A DNA stretch of 64,000 nucleotides from Escherichia coli (GCF_024502345.1 NZ_JALDNN010000001.1), one strand, 5' to 3'; numbered from the stretch's first letter, positions 1-8,611 are shown. Notes: generated from the letters alone by a model not told the origin. Translations and numbers: made by a program.

Positions 1-1
1 T

Positions 2-193
2 CGTCGCAACGCTGGCGTCATCCTGAACACGCTCAACCAGAAGCGTAATGAGGCGGTTGGTAAGTACGTTCAGCAAAACGGTATCAAGCGAGTGGAAGCG
101 CCTCAGGCTTCTATAGATTACCTGAAGCAGCACCCCGAGCTGTCAATCGACTTCATTAATCGCTACGGATATCTTCCATCTTTGGGGCAGTAA
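2..193 (+). CDS. 3' end of a phage structural/ejection-type gene, truncated by the window edge
   Basis: Frame 2 is open from the window edge to a TAA at 191-193; the stop abuts the next gene's ATG (TAAATG), suggesting translational coupling. No family assignment possible from 63 aa. Confidence 0.35.
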   Translation, partial: RRNAGVILNTLNQKRNEAVGKYVQQNGIKRVEAPQASIDYLKQHPELSIDFINRYGYLPSLGQ

Positions 194-649
194 ATGGCTA
201 ATTACCGTGATTTGTTAGAGCAGGCTGGCGCACGTTACGGTGTGCCAGAAGGGTTGATGACTGCACTGGGTGCCAAGGAGTCTTCTTACAACCCTGCCGC
301 AGTAAGCTCCGCCGGGGCTGTAGGATTGACTCAGGTCATGCCTGGGACATGGCGTGATATGGGTTATACCGATGAGCAAATGCAAAACCCCGAATATCAA
401 GCTGACGCTGGCGCGCGCTATCTGGCAAAGATGTACCAGCAGTTTGGTAACTGGCGTGACGCTCTTCAGGCTTATCACGACGGTCCCGGCAACGTTATGA
501 AGGCAAAGCGTGGTGAATATACGCCAGGACCTGAAGGCCGCGGTTACGTTGATGATCGCTTTGCTCAATGGGCGGGTGACCCGGTGACAGACTCAACAGT
601 CGAACAGCGCGCCACCTCTGCAAAGGTACCTTTGCTGATTGTTATCTGA
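194..649 (+). CDS. Phage lytic transglycosylase (SLT-domain) protein, probably virion/ejection-associated
   Basis: 151-aa ORF with the SLT signature (GAKESSYNPAAVSSAGAVGLTQVMP, catalytic Glu-Ser context); sits in the prophage late region upstream of the mnt/tailspike module. Confidence 0.7.
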   Translation: MANYRDLLEQAGARYGVPEGLMTALGAKESSYNPAAVSSAGAVGLTQVMPGTWRDMGYTDEQMQNPEYQADAGARYLAKMYQQFGNWRDALQAYHDGPGNVMKAKRGEYTPGPEGRGYVDDRFAQWAGDPVTDSTVEQRATSAKVPLLIVI

Positions 650-1163
650 TGTTACTGCTACTGTTGCATGTTACCGTGTTTCCAAATCCTGAATTGCAGT
701 TTGTATATGTGTCAACGCGTGTTGGGTAAGGTTGAGTTATAACAGGCTGGCGCGCTTTTTGCTCGATCGCTTGCATTGTGTTTACAGCCTGATAATTCAA
801 TAAAGCCTGCTGGAATGCTTGGCTTTGTGCTATTTGTTGGGCTTGTTCTTGGCTTTGTAATTGAACATAAAGATTCTGAAGCTCAAGTCTTGCCTGTGCG
901 TCACTTATCTTGCCTTCATCGACACCTTGCCCGAGCATCTTTGCAGCAAGGACATACAGCTTAGGTGTTGGTGCTGATGCCATGCGTGAGTCGTTCTTCA
1001 CACTGGCATCAAGGCAATTAGCCATATCGCTAAGCTTTTGATAGCGTTGTTCGCAACTTGCTTGATAGTCACTTACTTTTGCGCATCCAACCAGCAGAAG
1101 CGGGATAATTAACAGTGATTTTTTCATATGGTTAACTCTCCTTAGTTTTTCACAGGATATCAT
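642..1163 (-). CDS. Prophage-encoded lipoprotein, candidate superinfection-exclusion or moron protein
   Basis: 173-aa ORF with an N-terminal signal peptide and lipobox (MKKSLLIIPLLLVG-C), followed by a Gln-rich, coiled-coil-like segment; RBS-like GGAGAG upstream; lies where sieA sits in P22 (next to mnt). Confidence 0.6.
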   Translation of the reverse strand: MISCEKLRRVNHMKKSLLIIPLLLVGCAKVSDYQASCEQRYQKLSDMANCLDASVKNDSRMASAPTPKLYVLAAKMLGQGVDEGKISDAQARLELQNLYVQLQSQEQAQQIAQSQAFQQALLNYQAVNTMQAIEQKARQPVITQPYPTRVDTYTNCNSGFGNTVTCNSSSNIR

Positions 1164-1197
1164 GAAGGCTATGCCATTTTAGCCGGAAACTAGATTT

Positions 1198-1497
1198 CTA
1201 TGTTTCCTTTTTATTATTGCTATACATGGTCTTAAGCGTTTCAAATACCATTTTCTTAACCATATCAGATTGTTGTTCTGCCATACGCTCTGCATCATCA
1301 ATGTAAACGGATGCAGAGCTTTGTTTAGCCAACGATTCTTCAATCGCTGCAATTATCTCTGAGTTCAGAGATCTGTTATTCATCTTCGCACGCTGCTTAA
1401 TTTTCGCGTGGAGTTCATGCGGAAGTCTCAAGTGAAACTGCGCCTCATCGTATTTGCTGTACATCCTTGATGCCTCACCAGTTGGGTGGAATGGCAT
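1198..1497 (-). CDS. mnt: Mnt-like ribbon-helix-helix repressor (Arc/MetJ superfamily)
   Basis: C-terminal segment [26 protein letters not shown] closely parallels P22 Mnt as I recall it, and the N-terminal RHH motif ([28 protein letters not shown]) is present. The true start may be the internal Met (MYSKYDE, ~1464). Divergent from the tailspike gene. Confidence 0.7.
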
Positions 1498-1584
1498 CGT
1501 AACCTACTGGATAAATACTCAATAGTACCATTTCGGTATGCAATCACATCATGGTTGCATCATATCATCGTCTGGAGCAATGAA

Positions 1585-1725
1585 ATGTCAGATATCACCG
1601 CAAATGTTGTGGTAAGCATGCCTTCGCAACTCTTCACTATGGCGCGTTCTTTTAAAGCGGTTGCCAATGGTAAAATTTATATCGGTAAAATTGACACTGA
1701 CCCGGTAAATCCTGAAAACCAGATT
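1585..1725 (+). pseudogene. P22-type tailspike gene, 5' fragment (head-binding domain), cut off by an IS insertion
   Basis: [47 protein letters not shown] matches the P22 gp9 N-terminus almost residue for residue; the frame then runs into IS-end sequence and stops. Confidence 0.8.
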
Positions 1726-1761
1726 GATCTTGACCCTCCATCTCCGAACAGCTTTTGTATC

Positions 1762-2643
1762 TTAAGTTAACGATGTCCGCTGCCGCCGGTATTCCCTCGG
1801 GGAGTGATATCCCAGCGCGCTGTGCGGGTGGTTTTCATTGTAATGCGTGAACGCTACTGCAAGGTTTCGCAGTGCTGTTCTCACATCCGGTTTTGGCATG
1901 AACGCGATATAGTCTTCTTTCATCGTTTTCACGAACCGTTCGGCCATGCCATTACTCTGCGGGCTGCTCACCGCTGTTGTGCAGGGCTCCAGATTCAGCT
2001 CTCTCGCGAACCTCCGCGTTTCATACGCGGTATACGCTGAACCGTTATCCGTCAGCCACTGCACCGCTGTGTCGGGCAACCTGTCGCCGAAGCGCTTTTC
2101 CACCGACCTCAGCATCACATCCTGCACGGTCGAACTGTCATAGCCTCCCGTGCTTGCTGCCCAGTCTATGGCCTCACGGTCGCAGCAGTCCAGCGCGAAC
2201 GTTACCCGCAGTTTTTCGCCGTTGTCGCAGCCGAACTCGAAGCCATCTGAACACCAGCGCATATCGCTTTCTGCCACCGCTATCTTGCCCTTATGTTCAC
2301 GCTTCGGTCGCTCTGGTTTGTGATGCAACAACAACAGGTTATGCTCGCTCATTATCCTGTAAAGCCGTTTGGCATTCACAGGTGGCTGTCCCTCTGTGCG
2401 ACGTTGCTTGCGCAGGATGCCCCACACGCGTCGATAACCATAACTCGGCATATCGCTGATAATGTTGAGGATAGCCGACAGTATTTCTGCGTCTGCTTCT
2501 TCATTACGCCGGTTACAGCGCCTGTCCTGCCAGTCGGCAGAACGGTTAATCCGCAGTGACAGTTGCGCACGCGACACGCCCATGGTCCGGCTGACCATGG
2601 CTATTCCCCGTCCTTTGGCAACAAGGGCGCGTGCGCTATCCAT
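1762..2643 (-). CDS. IS transposase OrfB (DDE integrase-like catalytic domain), IS2 InsD homologue
   Basis: 293 aa; motifs shared with IS2 InsD ([55 protein letters not shown]). Confidence 0.85.
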
Positions 2644-2996
2644 TTTCGCGACTGACCGTACTCCACGGCTTCTTTCAGGATCTCAACTTCCATCGTTTTC
2701 TTGCCCAGAAGGCGCTGAAGCTCCCGGACCTGCTTCAGAGCAGCAGTAAGCTCAGAAGCAGGAACGACTTCCTCTCCAGCCGCAACGGCGGTGAGGCTGC
2801 CTTCCTGATATTGCTTCTTCCACTTAAACAGCAGGCTGGGCTGGATACCATGCAGGCGGGCGACATGGGAGACATTCATACCCGGCTCCATCGTCTGCTG
2901 GATAATGGCGATCTTCTCCTGAGGAGTTTTACGTTTACGGACTTCTTGCCCTAACAGGATCCCGGTCATCTCAAAATTGGCGTTAGTGTTAGACAT
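2601..2996 (-). CDS. IS transposase OrfA (HTH DNA-binding), IS2 InsC homologue
   Basis: 131 aa; [61 protein letters not shown] closely parallels IS2 InsC; overlaps OrfB in the -1 frame. Confidence 0.85.
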
Positions 2997-3060
2997 ATAT
3001 TCAAGCCTATCTCTTATCTGGAGATACAGCTACTGTCCGGTGTTTCAGGGGGCTACATCA

Positions 3061-5026
3061 TCCTGAAAACCAGATTCAGGTTTATGTGGAGAATGAGGAT
3101 GGTTCTCACGTTCCTGTTTCGCAGCCAATCATCATTAACGCCGCTGGTTATCCTGTATATAACGGACAGATTGCCAAGTTCGTAACTGTGCAAGGCCACT
3201 CTATGGCTGTTTATGATGCATATGGTGCGCAGCAGTTTTATTTCCCTAATGTGCTGAAATACGACCCTGATCAGTTAAGGAAGGAAATTACATCCACAGG
3301 GAAAGGAAAAGGTGCGGATATGATCCCCCTTCAGCAGGGTGGAACAGTTCAAAGTGCTATATATTATGTTACGCCATCATCGGCAGGAATAACTGGTGAT
3401 GGGACAGATGAAGGAGAAAAATTAATCTATTTGCTAAATAGATATGATGGGTATGTTATCGACCTGTCTGGAATGACAATTAAAACAAGCGAGATGATTA
3501 GTGTTGTTTTCAACAAAAAAACAACAATAAGAAATGGAACTATTATCTATACTGGAGCAGTAAGTCCATTTGTTTTAAAAATAACGTGCTCATCCGTTCT
3601 TTCCATAGAGGATATTGCCATTGACGGCAAGAACAATGCTGCAAAGCTACTCTATGCGCTTTCATCCGATAACAACGCAAAAATATCTATTTCAGGCTAT
3701 TCTGGAAGAAACGCTAGGGAAGCAATTGACACAGGATTATCAACTGCTGCATATATTACGGCAGGCTCATTGTTTAGATGGAAAGAGATTAGGCTGTCAG
3801 ATTCCTCAGCTTATGATATTTCAAGCTCAGGTGGTTCTAATGTTGGTCGCGGGTTTATGGTTCAAAACTTTGAATATTGCTATGTTAGGAATATTTCAGT
3901 ATTCCGAGTTGGACCATATCAGGATGCGGATGGGATATATGCATCATCCCCTAACTATTTATCAGCAGTATTTGATATTAGTGATTCGTATTTTGAAGAC
4001 TGCCAGAAGAGATCAGTCAAATCACAGATAATGAACTCTCGGGTGAGCAATATTGTAGAGCGGCGCACACAGGCCTTTGCTGTTGCTGCTGGGCAGTCAG
4101 CAGTAGACTTGCAGGCAGGAGGTTCTCTAGACGGACTTAGTTGCTTCTATGCTGACGGAGCAGCCCCACAGTCAATCGTTTCAGGTGGTCTTGTCAGTGG
4201 AGCACCGACATTTCGAGGTATTTCTTTGCGAAATATTGACGTCAACTGCGAAGATCCGTCAGATATTATCTCTCGTCTGGTATCATTTTATAATAACTCG
4301 CCGAATACATATGATGGTTACATTGCTGAAAATATAAAATGTAATGCCATAATAGAGAATGTTGGATTTCTGTATAGCAATACAGGAAACACAAATTTTA
4401 ATGTATATCTCTTCAAAGAGGTTATCTTCAGAAACATTCAGTCGTCAGGAATGGCAGGAACGGTGCCAACTGCTGTAATTCAAATAAGCAGAGGTTCCTC
4501 TGCGTATGTGAAGGCTATAGTACGGGTGCAAAACCTCAATCTTGGCGATGGAAATATCGCACCATTGTATTATCTTGACCCATTGCCAGGGGTTACAACT
4601 TTTCTTGATGTTTTATTTCGTCAAGTAAGTAATTGCAGAGGGTTTGATACGCTAACTAACGTAAATTCCGATACATCTCAACGCATCTATGCAGTAACTG
4701 CAGACGTAGCTGAAAATGAATCTACAACACTTTTAATACCAATAAAGACAACAAATGGAAAAACGGCAGTAAAAATATCTGTAATGTATAACTCAAACAG
4801 GGATGAGCATGCAGCAAAGCTATTCACAGAAGGATACTGGTTCTTCGGGTTATCATTGCCATATTATATAGAATCAGTCGCTGGAGTAAAAACACAAACA
4901 AACGTTGGATCTATCGTGGTCACAGTTGCTGAAAACAATTTAGTTGTAAAAAAAATCGCTGGAACCACCGCTGCAAGCGGGCGGATGACAGTGATTATTG
5001 AGCATATATCATGCGTGAATATGTAG
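3061..5026 (+). pseudogene. P22-type tailspike gene, 3' portion (rest of head-binding domain plus a divergent beta-helix receptor-binding domain)
   Basis: Resumes …(PENQI)[50 protein letters not shown]… matching P22 gp9 residues ~45-110, then diverges; the six-frame ORF (3086..5026) starts at an internal Met. AT-rich relative to the flanks. Confidence 0.75.
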
Positions 5027-5160
5027 GTTAATCTGATAAATTGGGAATGGATTGGTTGCAGAATGGCGCCCTCTGTGAGACATCTGCTGCATTAGGAGTG
5101 ATAACATACATCATCAACGATGCGATGTGAGTTTGATTATTGCACGGTTTATAGGTGGCG

Positions 5161-6318
5161 CTATGCCACCCTCTCATCAATCCAGTCCGCCCACCACTGC
5201 ATCATTTCTCTGCGCTTATCGAGATACTGAGCATGGTTGTAAATCCCACGCACAGATCCGCCGTTGGCATGTGCCAGTTGCACTTCAATAGCGTCAGCAG
5301 GCCATTCGTGCTCGTTCATAATCGTGCTGAATTCATGTCTGAATCCGTGACCGCTATCCAGACCCTCATAGCCGATTTGTTTGATCACAAGTAGCACCGC
5401 GTTCTCGCAGATTGGCTTCTTCTTATCGTTGCGCCCGGCAAAAACAAATTCTGATACTGGTTTGGTGATGGAGCTTAACGTAGTGAGAAGTTCAACCACC
5501 TGGTCTGACATCGGGACCACATGAATTTTGCGTCCTTTCATCACACTGGCGTCGATGGTGATAATCCTGTTTTCAAAATCGACGTTCTTCCATAGCATAG
5601 AACGAAGCTCTTTCGTTCTTAGGGCTGTGTAGCGTAAAACTTTGGTCGCAATGAGCGATACAATACTTCCTGAAAATGTTGCCAGTGCTTTGTTGAATGC
5701 CGGGATCTGGTCTGCAGGAAGAAACGGGAAGTTCTTCTTGCGGTATCCCTTCATGGCGTCAGCAAGGTCAGGTGCCGGGTTATATTTAGCCCTACCAGTA
5801 ACAATAGCGTAACGGAAAACCTCGCCGCATCTTCTGCGGGCTTTGTTGGCTCTCTCCATTGCGCCGCGATCTTCAAATCTGCGGATTACTTCCAGCAGTT
5901 GCATCGGCTCAATATCCTGAATTTCAAGGCCGCCGATGATGGGTAAAATGTCGTCATCAAACATTTTGGCAAGTTCAGTTGCATAGCCTACTGACCAGAC
6001 TTGCTTCTTGTGCTCGTACCACTCCTTGTAAATCGCACTAAATGAATTGTTGTTAGACGAAGCCTTTTTCGCCTTTACCGGATCGATGCCAACCGAGATG
6101 TCTTTCCTCGCAGTCCATGCCTTATCCCTTGCTTCCTGCAAAGTCATAAGCGGATATTTTCCGACGGTCAGGATTTTCTCCTTACCGTCAATCTTGTAGC
6201 GAAGCTGCCATACCTTTTTCCCGGATACAGGAACATAAAGGTACAGGCCATTACCATCGAGAAGGCGGTATGGTTTTTCTTTCGGCTTTGCTGCTTCAAT
6301 CTGCTTAACGGTGAGCAT
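5161..6318 (-). CDS. intS: Prophage integrase, tyrosine recombinase (IntS / CPS-53 type)
   Basis: Near-identical by eye to E. coli IntS as I recall it (MLTVKQIEAAKPKEKPYRLLDGNGLYLYVPVSGKKVWQLRYKIDGKEK…HGFRHEF…); next to the tRNA. An in-frame upstream ATG at 6354 would give 397 aa; the annotated start is probably the MLTVKQ Met. Confidence 0.9.
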   Translation of the reverse strand: MLTVKQIEAAKPKEKPYRLLDGNGLYLYVPVSGKKVWQLRYKIDGKEKILTVGKYPLMTLQEARDKAWTARKDISVGIDPVKAKKASSNNNSFSAIYKEWYEHKKQVWSVGYATELAKMFDDDILPIIGGLEIQDIEPMQLLEVIRRFEDRGAMERANKARRRCGEVFRYAIVTGRAKYNPAPDLADAMKGYRKKNFPFLPADQIPAFNKALATFSGSIVSLIATKVLRYTALRTKELRSMLWKNVDFENRIITIDASVMKGRKIHVVPMSDQVVELLTTLSSITKPVSEFVFAGRNDKKKPICENAVLLVIKQIGYEGLDSGHGFRHEFSTIMNEHEWPADAIEVQLAHANGGSVRGIYNHAQYLDKRREMMQWWADWIDERVA

Positions 6319-6479
6319 GGGTAAAAATCCGGTGGGTAAAATTATTTTATCCACTTTTTACCCGTCATGGAGTGCGGCTGTCAACGATCTGAAGCGAACC
6401 ATGACGAACTGTTAGTTTCCGGGAGGCTTGATATTCTGGGGATTTTACGGACTGGTACGGATGGGAGCGAACTGATAAA

Positions 6480-6554
6480 TGGTGTCCCCTGCAGGAATCG
6501 AACCTGCAATTAGCCCTTAGGAGGGGCTCGTTATATCCATTTAACTAAGAGGAC
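6480..6554 (-). tRNA. argW: tRNA-Arg (anticodon CCU); prophage attachment site
   Basis: Reverse complement reads GTCCTCTTAGTTAAATGGATATAACGAGCCCCTCCTAAGGGCTAATTGCAGGTTCGATTCCTGCAGGGGACACCA, with a CCT anticodon in the loop, T-arm GGTTCGATTCC and 3' CCA. Confidence 0.9.
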
Positions 6555-6629
6555 AATGCGGCATGAGTATACCCGCTAATGGACTGCGGGGTAAGTACGC
6601 TGCCGCTCGATTGCTTAAACCCTCGCCAT

Positions 6630-7562
6630 TTATGCCGGGTTTTTATCATTTTTCTTAATGTTTTCCGCACGTTCTGCTTTTTGGCGTGCTTCTGCTTTGC
6701 GCTTGTTGCTCATGTCGTTACGGATCTGTGCATGACTCATTAACGCGAAGATAAAGGTGCCGCCGCAGATGTTCCCCGCTAAAGTAGGTAGTGCGAAGGG
6801 CCAGATGAAATCGCTCCAGTGCAGCGTACCGTTAAACACCAGATAGAGGATTTCAACAGAACCGACAACGATGTGAGTGGTGTCACCCAGGGCAATAAGC
6901 CAAGTCATCAATATAATCACCACAATCTTTGCCGCACCCGCTGCAGGAAACATCCATACCATAGTGGCGATCAGCCAGCCGGAAATGATCGCGTTGGCAA
7001 ACATCTCGCTGGGGGTGTTCTTCATCACATCCATGCCGATTTTGACAAATGCATCGCGAGTTTCTTCATTGAAGATTGGCATATATTCAAATGCCCACGC
7101 CGCAATACCTGTCCCGAGAATATTACCCAGCAGCACGACGCCCCATAACCGCATAAGTAAGCCAACGTTGCTCATTGTCGGTTTTTGCATGACGGGTAGT
7201 ACCGCAGTTACGGTGTTTTCGGTAAATAATTGCTGGCGGGCCATAATGACGATAATAAAACCAAAGGTATAACCGAGATTCTCCAGCAAGAAGCTGCCCG
7301 GCACACCTTCCAGTTCGACATGAAATATCCCTTTTGCCAGTAATGAAGCGCCCATCGACAGACCCGCCGCAATGGCTGACCACAGTAGTGCCATTGCGTC
7401 GCGTTCCAGCTCTTTTTCACCATCCTGGCGGATATGCTCATGAATTGCCATCGCCCGGGAGGGGAGTCGATCTTCATCTATTTCTATTTTTTTGCCACGC
7501 TCTTTTTCTTCGCTCTCAACTTCAATTTCGTCGCTGTGTTGATCAATTTTGTCGTTGTCCAT
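6630..7562 (-). CDS. yfdC: Formate/nitrite transporter (FNT) family inner-membrane protein
   Basis: 310-aa ORF, multi-pass membrane protein with an acidic N-terminus; conserved position between argW and mlaA. Confidence 0.85.
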   Translation of the reverse strand: MDNDKIDQHSDEIEVESEEKERGKKIEIDEDRLPSRAMAIHEHIRQDGEKELERDAMALLWSAIAAGLSMGASLLAKGIFHVELEGVPGSFLLENLGYTFGFIIVIMARQQLFTENTVTAVLPVMQKPTMSNVGLLMRLWGVVLLGNILGTGIAAWAFEYMPIFNEETRDAFVKIGMDVMKNTPSEMFANAIISGWLIATMVWMFPAAGAAKIVVIILMTWLIALGDTTHIVVGSVEILYLVFNGTLHWSDFIWPFALPTLAGNICGGTFIFALMSHAQIRNDMSNKRKAEARQKAERAENIKKNDKNPA

Positions 7563-7855
7563 GGTCTCTTCTCTTGAATTAGCACGTATAGCTAAAGCGT
7601 AGCGGCTTTTTTGCTCGCAACTGGCGGGAGTTACTCTGAAAATGAAGAAAAGGCCGCGATTGCCTTTTTCTGTTTCTATAGAATCAAGTAGCCTACAGGG
7701 CGGCGATTACCAGGCTATGATCAAATCAGCAAATCAGGGCGTCTGGACATCAGTTGACGTGCTGTTACAATCGCCCACACCTAAACAGGCGGATACGGTA
7801 TCGTTCCGTCATGGATGGCAAACTGCATAAGCCATAAAAAAACAGGGAGACATTT

Positions 7856-8611
7856 ATGAAGCTTCGCCTGTCGGCGCTTGCTCTGGGAACTACGCTTCTG
7901 GTGGGGTGTGCGAGTTCCGGTACAGATCAGCAAGGGCGTTCTGACCCGTTAGAAGGGTTCAACCGCACCATGTACAACTTCAACTTCAACGTACTAGACC
8001 CGTATATTGTTCGACCGGTCGCTGTCGCCTGGCGTGATTATGTTCCGCAACCGGCGCGTAACGGTTTGAGCAACTTTACCGGCAACCTTGAAGAACCCGC
8101 GGTGATGGTGAACTACTTCTTGCAGGGCGACCCTTATCAGGGGATGGTCCACTTTACCCGCTTTTTCCTGAACACCATTTTGGGGATGGGTGGTTTTATT
8201 GATGTTGCAGGGATGGCGAACCCGAAACTGCAACGGACTGAACCTCACCGCTTCGGTAGTACGCTTGGTCATTATGGCGTGGGTTATGGGCCTTACGTCC
8301 AGTTACCGTTCTACGGTAGCTTCACGCTGCGTGATGACGGTGGTGATATGGCGGATGGTCTTTACCCGGTTCTTTCCTGGCTGACCTGGCCGATGTCTGT
8401 GGGTAAATGGACGCTTGAAGGGATAGAAACTCGTGCGCAGTTGTTGGATTCCGACGGTCTGCTGCGTCAGTCGTCCGATCCTTATATTATGGTGCGCGAA
8501 GCGTACTTCCAGCGTCATGATTTCATCGCTAATGGCGGCGAACTCAAACCGCAGGAAAATCCGAACGCGCAAGCGATTCAGGATGATTTAAAAGATATCG
8601 ATTCTGAATAA
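7856..8611 (+). CDS. mlaA: Outer-membrane lipoprotein MlaA (VacJ), phospholipid asymmetry maintenance
   Basis: 251 aa; signal peptide with lipobox (LLVG-C); RBS AGGGAGA upstream. Confidence 0.9.
   Translation: MKLRLSALALGTTLLVGCASSGTDQQGRSDPLEGFNRTMYNFNFNVLDPYIVRPVAVAWRDYVPQPARNGLSNFTGNLEEPAVMVNYFLQGDPYQGMVHFTRFFLNTILGMGGFIDVAGMANPKLQRTEPHRFGSTLGHYGVGYGPYVQLPFYGSFTLRDDGGDMADGLYPVLSWLTWPMSVGKWTLEGIETRAQLLDSDGLLRQSSDPYIMVREAYFQRHDFIANGGELKPQENPNAQAIQDDLKDIDSE

Follow-up and report, generated by a model that had tools for sequence, protein, structure and literature searches.

The question raised by the left end of this 64,000-nucleotide stretch of Escherichia coli DNA (GCF_024502345.1, NZ_JALDNN010000001.1), referred to here in its entirety as the window, is what an overlap between two convergent genes means. 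Close to the first letter lies an open reading frame (ORF) with an SLT domain, which starts directly behind the stop codon of an upstream gene and ends within the 3' end of a lipoprotein gene on the opposite strand. The initial annotation of this region took the first junction to suggest translational coupling and the second to imply possible transcriptional interference between a late-operon gene and a lipoprotein gene expressed in the lysogen. The comparisons described below lead with high confidence to a different reading, in which the SLT-domain ORF is the stump of an ejection gene in a decayed prophage and the overlap is accidental, the scar of a deletion. They establish directly that the SLT gene is truncated, at which junction this occurs, that intact relatives do not have the overlap, and that the lipoprotein gene is intact. 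The features concerned are:

1..193, + strand: 3' end of a gene for a gp20-like DNA-ejection protein (the second ejection gene); the window begins inside this gene
191..196, + strand: TAAATG stop/start abutment with a 0-nt spacer, preceded by GGGG (184-187) as a weak Shine-Dalgarno-like run
194..649, + strand: truncated SLT-domain ejection gene in the position of P22 gp16, consisting of 145 native codons, a junction codon, and a foreign tail
615..629, unstranded: deletion junction region, with the imperfect repeat CCTCTGCAAAGGTAC (SLT gene) resembling CCTCTGCATAGGCGATAC (spacer) and the breakpoint 629/630 within or after TAC
620..635, unstranded: perfect 16-bp palindrome GCAAAGGTACCTTTGC, created by the deletion
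630..641, unstranded: last 12 nt of an ancestral 90-bp convergent spacer, as aligned to Gally, VSe13, the L004 locus, and GPEC1292
642..1127, - strand: intact lipoprotein gene, 161 aa, phrog_6067; the stop codon TAA lies on 644-642

The Two Junctions

Both junctions are present as originally described. The TAA at 191-193 stands directly before the ATG at 194-196 on the + strand, and the + strand ORF 194-649 and the - strand lipoprotein gene 642-1127 share 8 bp (642-649), inside which both stop codons lie. What was made of these junctions is only partly supported, in that coupling at the first is plausible while the gene model of the SLT ORF and the meaning given to the overlap are wrong.

A run of G residues lies 6 nt upstream of the SLT ORF start. 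The TAAATG junction is identical in five Sf101-type loci (Sf101, GPEC1292, strain 1190, CEA601S, and L006, one of the sister contigs described below), and its upstream context TTTGGGGCAG is common to every Sf101-type relative. Two divergent allele types of the gp20-like gene and the gene in the SLT position are joined by TAATG or TGATG, a 1-nt overlap. Abutted or overlapping stop and start codons are a native, conserved trait of the ejection-gene cluster. Since the tight arrangement is conserved across divergent alleles, the gp20-like and SLT-domain genes of the intact phages in this family may reasonably be supposed to be translationally coupled.

The segment of the upstream gene in the window is 99.5-99.8% identical to genes annotated as “DNA injection” or “phage DNA ejection protein” in Sf101, IME10, and GPEC1292, and the gp20-like ORF matches Pfam PF16928 (Inj_translocase) in sister contigs with 100% identity to the window. 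The SLT ORF follows this gene directly, as does the third ejection protein of the Sf101 type (phrog_21143), whose gene comes right after those of the gp7-like and gp20-like ejection proteins.

The SLT-Domain ORF as a Gene Fragment

The SLT ORF encodes 151 aa, ends with the TGA at 647-649, and carries the C-terminal tail PLLIVI. Its Pfam SLT match (PF01464) scores 92.6 bits over a cut-off of 21.3 (E = 1.6e-26) and extends over residues 7-110, corresponding to model positions 2-110 of 117. Slt70-type enzymes contain a catalytic Glu-Ser motif and conserved motifs downstream of it. The translation contains E29-S30 within GAKESSYNP, followed by GLTQVM and AYHDGPG, and the best sequence match in the PDB is Slt70 itself (1qsa, E = 2.3e-11). 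A literature search combining Sf101 and transglycosylase returned nothing relevant to the SLT-domain ejection gene.

Comparison with full-length relatives revealed how little of the gene is left. Residues 1-145 are identical at 145 of 145 positions to four proteins of 781, 797, 797, and 911 aa. The Sf101 gene with this ATG as its start codon encodes 911 aa, is annotated as a transglycosylase, and stands third in the ejection-protein cluster; the product is 781 aa long in CEA601S and 797 aa in both GPEC1292 and strain 1190. Past residue 145 the long homologues continue with VHPQQDPNNPF, where the window has VPLLIVI and then its stop codon. The profile of phrog_21143 has 576 positions, of which 1-145 alone align, to residues 1-145. 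The ORF thus lacks 82-84% of the full-length protein, or ~640-770 C-terminal residues of the Sf101-type third ejection protein. These lengths were obtained from DNA searches of complete genomes and from annotated loci; a word-indexed protein search returned only short or partial clusters, missed the long SLT forms, and was set aside. The ORF is thus a pseudogene fragment that retains roughly one sixth of an ejection-protein gene, from its 5' end. The initial annotation had treated it as a gene with a stop of its own and had named another true stop in homologues as an outcome that would refute its reading; the homologues run 636-766 codons further, which is just that outcome.

The exact 151-aa product has a GenBank record as a “hypothetical protein” (KUG73479.1) and is encoded by at least 24 contigs that come from independent samples, so it is real and not an assembly artefact. 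Because the SLT domain is complete, the fragment may retain residual enzymatic activity. It is nevertheless likely to be functionless, as it lacks both a signal peptide and the C-terminal ~650 residues of a virion ejection protein.

The completeness of the domain raises the alternative that the 151-aa product has been domesticated as a stand-alone lytic transglycosylase and is kept by the host. The catalytic motifs are preserved, the domain matches the N-terminal transglycosylase module of T7 gp16 (PDB 7eyb_I, E = 3e-4), and the ORF is unbroken in all of those contigs, which come from different samples. The N-terminus (MANYRDLLEQAGARYG...), on the other hand, contains neither a signal peptide nor a lipobox, so that the enzyme would not reach the peptidoglycan; a promoter scan of the + strand (1-1800) found no promoter that the ORF could call its own, and the surrounding prophage is decaying. 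The product is also rare next to the intact lipoprotein (at least 24 vs. at least 1000 contigs). The short allele is 100% identical in every known copy; relaxed selection therefore cannot show itself in substitutions, and persistence reflects recent clonal descent rather than selection. Domestication of the fragment is accordingly very unlikely.

A Deletion Junction at 629/630

In a megablast search of window 1-1600 against phage genomes, the matches fall into two distinct sets. Positions 1-629 are 99.4-99.8% identical to Sf101, IME10, Dewey, Huey, and others, and all of these Sf101-type matches end at base 629. Positions 615-1144 and beyond match other phages, namely Gally, vB_EcoP-720R6, and VSe13, with the homology to the lipoprotein module beginning at 612-616. 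Both flanks occur in cis in the GPEC1292 prophage (locus L005), where window 1-629 corresponds to L005 1854-2482 (99.5%) and window 615-1725 to L005 4501-5615. The GPEC1292 interval between them holds the remainder of the SLT-domain gene, followed by a spacer of 90 bp that reaches to the lipoprotein stop. Relative to GPEC1292, the implied deletion is 2,036 bp and comprises codons 146 to the end together with 78 of the 90 nt of the spacer. A search for the deleted 2-kb segment elsewhere in the window found no match.

The left breakpoint reads CCACCTCTGCAAAGGTAC/ATCC and the right one CCCTCTGCATAGGCGATAC/CTTTGCTG, and the window joins CCACCTCTGCAAAGGTAC to CTTTGCTG. Both breakpoints in GPEC1292 contain the exact 8-mer CCTCTGCA, within a repeat of the form CCTCTGCA(A/T)AGG(CGA)TAC. 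In the SLT ORF, codon 146 is the junction codon; its first base, 629, is native, and five fully foreign codons and the TGA follow. Stop codons occur 2, 32, and 5 codons from the junction in the three frames, and the frame actually used is the one with 5 whole codons after the junction codon. The presence and the length of the overlap are hence a matter of which frame the deletion left open.

These observations lead to the following course of events. A deletion of 2,036 bp occurred between the in-gene repeat CCTCTGCAAAGGTAC and its look-alike CCTCTGCATAGGCGATAC in the spacer, probably through short-homology illegitimate recombination or slippage. The broken frame then crosses the remaining 12 nt of spacer, enters the 3' end of the lipoprotein gene, and terminates at the TGA at 647-649, which accounts for both the six-residue tail and the 8-bp overlap. 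A third DNA-ejection gene of 781-911 codons in relatives has thereby been reduced to 145 codons with its SLT domain complete. As the SLT gene was cut by a 2-kb deletion, the overlap is read as an accidental scar and not as regulatory design.

The same joint could also have arisen by illegitimate recombination between two P22-like genomes, one contributing an Sf101-type ejection gene and the other a lipoprotein module of the Gally/Sf6 type, leaving a failed mosaic joint. The best relatives of the left and right flanks do differ, and the right flank is closer to L004, a locus with the other type of ejection gene (99.0%), than to GPEC1292 (97.9%). Moreover, homology among prophages breaks repeatedly at base 612-616, and the ant moron, which in P22-like genomes separates the tailspike gene from the ejection genes, is described as having unusually high genetic flux (ε34 genome; Villafane et al., 2008; PMC2629481), which also makes a deletion border at this place unsurprising. 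In GPEC1292, however, the Sf101-type N-terminus is already linked in cis to the lipoprotein gene, with the same 90-bp spacer in place, so that a single intragenomic deletion between repeat copies suffices, and a second large deletion in the prophage (described below) fits stepwise decay. An origin by exchange between two phages is therefore considered improbable, and deletion within one genome is preferred.

The use of GPEC1292 as an undeleted reference is confined to the SLT/lipoprotein junction, and it is not taken as an intact phage. Its prophage is rearranged upstream, where a partial ral pseudogene (L005 640-756) abuts and overlaps the start of the gp20-like gene (715-2046).

The junction region also contains the palindrome at 620-635. 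At the corresponding site in the ancestral spacer, the hairpin is imperfect and its loop reads CGATA. A pattern scan flagged the palindrome as terminator-like, but the count of terminator-like patterns did not exceed that in shuffled sequences. Folding energies were no better than those of shuffles (z = +0.58 and -0.37), whichever strand was folded, and the ancestral spacer hairpin likewise folds no better than shuffled sequence. The palindrome is therefore rejected as a meaningful structure.

Distribution of the Overlap

A survey of 5,426 complete E. coli genomes found window 194-629 in 67, each of which loses homology at 629; another 147 match the right-hand side only. A match spanning the junction was found in none of these 214 genomes that match window 194-700 and in none of 14 phage records. 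Where the two sides face each other in intact relatives, they are separated. The convergent spacer is 90 bp in Gally, VSe13, Z142-1, and GPEC1292, 24 bp in CEA601S, 17 bp in Sf101 (where the gene faces mnt), and 14 bp in an O26 prophage. Conservation in related prophages had been proposed as a check; the overlap is absent from every intact relative and is not kept in homologous loci of diverged relatives as a functional one would be.

This distribution bears on the reading of the initial annotation, in which two intact genes are packed tail-to-tail and the overlap mediates interference between a late SLT gene and a lysogenic lipoprotein gene. The overlap is physically there, the SLT domain is complete, the lipoprotein gene lies downstream of mnt on the same strand, which makes its expression in the lysogen plausible, and the palindrome at 620-635 has the terminator-like look noted above. 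Against this reading stand the far longer SLT homologues, the 214 matching genomes of which none spans the junction, and the spacers of 14-90 bp in intact relatives. The further evidence on this point concerns transcription and is considered with the prophage below.

The Lipoprotein Gene

The other partner in the overlap is intact. Its stop codon has the same position in the annotated loci of Gally, VSe13, L004, GPEC1292 (L005), and L016. As the start, ATG 1127 is favored over 1163, since it has AAGGAG 8 nt upstream and gives the 161-aa form that PGAP annotates in relatives, a change that leaves the overlap unaffected. The exact 161-aa protein is encoded on at least 1000 contigs. Its N-terminus MKKSLLIIPLLLVGC is a signal peptide ending in the lipobox LVGC, with Cys15 as the predicted site of lipidation, and Cys15 is invariant among 37 homologues from many Enterobacterales. 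The protein is 50-99% identical across E. coli, Citrobacter, Serratia, Klebsiella, Yersinia, Pectobacterium, Morganella, and Providencia, and its invariant cysteines are Cys15, Cys25, Cys38, and Cys154.

Sequence searches of Pfam, NCBIfam, PADLOC, and the PDB gave nothing significant that would indicate the function of the lipoprotein, and its PHROGs match, phrog_6067, is annotated as of unknown function. An AlphaFold2 model built from an alignment of the 37 sequences reached a pLDDT of 63, with residues 18-94 helical, and a Foldseek search of this model against the PDB returned no match with E < 1. Searching the literature for “ant moron” together with “lipoprotein” found nothing. From its position next to mnt, a surface or exclusion function expressed in the lysogen, such as superinfection exclusion, might be guessed.

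The Prophage Remnant and Its Transcription

The features to the right of the lipoprotein gene place the locus in its wider setting:

1198..1497, - strand: gene for a Mnt/Arc-family repressor, 99 aa from ATG 1497 (PGAP prefers 88 aa from ATG 1464)
1585..5026, + strand: tailspike gene with a P22-type head-binding N-terminus, split by an insertion sequence (IS) at about codon 47
1725..3060, - strand: IS3-family IS of 1,336 bp with TG...CA ends, flanked by a 15-bp direct repeat
5161-6354, - strand: prophage integrase gene, at the right end of the remnant
6480-6554, - strand: tRNA-Arg(CCT), at the right end of the prophage remnant

The repressor ORF 1198-1497 matches Pfam Arc (1.1e-14) and Repressor_Mnt (3.9e-12). 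The first 6.5 kb of the window make up the right-hand part of a P22-like (Lederbergvirus-type) prophage that has decayed beside tRNA-Arg(CCT) (argW). A set of sister contigs matches window 1-1725 with 100% identity and window 3060-8000 with 99.8-100%, and such near-identity to both flanks marks them as the same lineage without the IS. In these contigs the tailspike gene is uninterrupted and encodes 696 aa with PF09008, and the order of the integrase, Form_Nir_trans, and MlaA genes is the same as in the window.

The sister contigs also reveal what lies to the left of the point at which the window begins. They carry DUF551, KilA-N, a CI-type repressor, Cro, CII, a 53-aa gene (gp53), and a 381-aa “Inj_translocase” ORF, after which come the SLT stump, the lipoprotein, Mnt, the 696-aa tailspike, the integrase, and chromosomal genes. 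In one of them (L006), positions 4350-4958 are 99% identical to cII-gp53-O of HK97 and the gp20-like gene begins at 4956. A second deletion has therefore removed the replication, late-regulator, lysis, and head genes from these contigs. For the window this upstream deletion is taken from the identical sister contigs, because the window starts inside the gp20-like gene; its upstream side very probably is the same, with the late operon lost. The 381-aa ORF itself (L006 4855-6000) is an in-frame fusion of ~34 codons of an HK97-like O gene with the gp20-like gene, which follows from codon ~96.

If the SLT fragment is transcribed at all, the early right promoter rather than a late promoter would then drive it, and the description of the ORF as a late-operon gene very probably no longer holds for a lineage in which the late operon has given way to an O'-'gp20 fusion. 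With the late operon missing from identical contigs, there is probably no late transcription left that could interfere with the lipoprotein gene. In intact P22-like phages, too, the spacing would not matter. [quoted passage not shown] Taken with a truncated SLT gene, an overlap confined to the deletion lineage, and a hairpin no stabler than shuffles, these points make interference borne by a purpose-built overlap extremely improbable.

The promoter position gives the domestication idea a more elaborate form, in which the fragment is a free-standing, active SLT muramidase that is driven by the early right promoter through the O'-'gp20 fusion, is produced only upon SOS induction, and has been domesticated along with the repressor, Mnt, and the lipoprotein. 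This form, too, is very unlikely; if it were true, a free SLT muramidase module could serve, for example, in envelope remodelling or abortive lysis. Apart from such a case, in which the stump proves active, the locus has no wider biological consequence. The deletion-scar reading carries a lesson chiefly for annotation: a tidy 151-aa “SLT-domain protein” that overlaps its neighbor invites regulatory stories, when the ORF is what remains of an ~800-aa virion ejection protein, and the prophage around it has lost the ability to form particles. Odd gene overlaps in prophages should be tested as deletion scars first.

Comparison with Known Systems

The closest known counterparts of the SLT fragment are full-length ejection proteins. 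Sf101 gp13, annotated “transglycosylase” (AII27837.1, 911 aa), has the same start codon, the same TAAATG junction, and the same first 145 residues, and the same likeness extends to 781-797-aa “lytic transglycosylase domain-containing” proteins of E. coli prophages (WP_462068854.1, WP_096057900.1). From all of these the window copy differs by its truncation after residue 145 and its six-residue foreign tail.

A more distant counterpart is T7 gp16 (PDB 7eyb), to which SLT residues 3-112 align over gp16 positions 11-126 at the E-value given above. In both cases the largest ejection protein, encoded last, carries the SLT domain at its very N-terminus, and an N-terminal lytic transglycosylase domain is part of the described architecture of gp16 (PMC8954989). 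T7 gp16 is longer (1,318 aa, compared to 781-911 aa for the Sf101 type), and the window fragment lacks everything past the enzymatic domain.

The Sf101-type protein in the gp16 position (L001 2694-5429, L005 2047-4440, and window 194-628) has its SLT domain at the N-terminus, as does T7 gp16. The generalisation about ejection proteins in the literature holds for P22 and Sf6 and not for this Sf101-type subgroup. The L004 locus carries, at 2443-4440, a 665-aa third ejection protein of the Gally/Sf6 type that PGAP names “lytic transglycosylase domain-containing”. Pfam SLT does not match this protein at E <= 0.001; phrog_2013, which represents the L004-type family, has an SLT-like stretch at profile positions 468-570 of 657.

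The module that contains the lipoprotein gene resembles the ant moron, or immI region, known from P22-like phages. Like that region, it follows the ejection genes and precedes the tailspike gene (here starting at 1585), encodes a Mnt-type repressor, and has an extra gene of unknown function oriented opposite to the late operon. It differs in lacking arc, ant, and sieA, in carrying the phrog_6067 lipoprotein as cargo, and in having a left border that is eroded into the ejection gene. A search for arc, ant, and sar found no ORF between mnt and the tailspike start, and L004 and GPEC1292 are without them as well.

With two large deletions, an IS-broken tailspike gene, and retained repressor, integrase, and moron genes, the remnant is like other cryptic prophages of E. 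coli. It differs from them in nothing of principle and is one more example, beside tRNA-Arg(CCT). The overlap is an ordinary deletion scar in such a prophage, already present in public data.

The Insertion Sequence in the Tailspike Gene

The direct repeat flanking the IS, TCCTGAAAACCAGAT, occupies 1710-1724 and 3061-3075 and is single-copy in the IS-free sister contigs. Other copies of the element were compared at loci L019, L020, and L021. Identical copies at two other independent sites are flanked by repeats of 16 bp and 15 bp, and a plasmid copy has no flanking repeat. Target duplications of IS3-family elements are normally 3, 4, or 5 bp, and duplications of ~15 bp are found only in some IS481/IS1202 elements (PMC10045372). 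Given its 15-16-bp repeats against this 3-5-bp norm, the IS in the tailspike gene appears to make unusually long target duplications.
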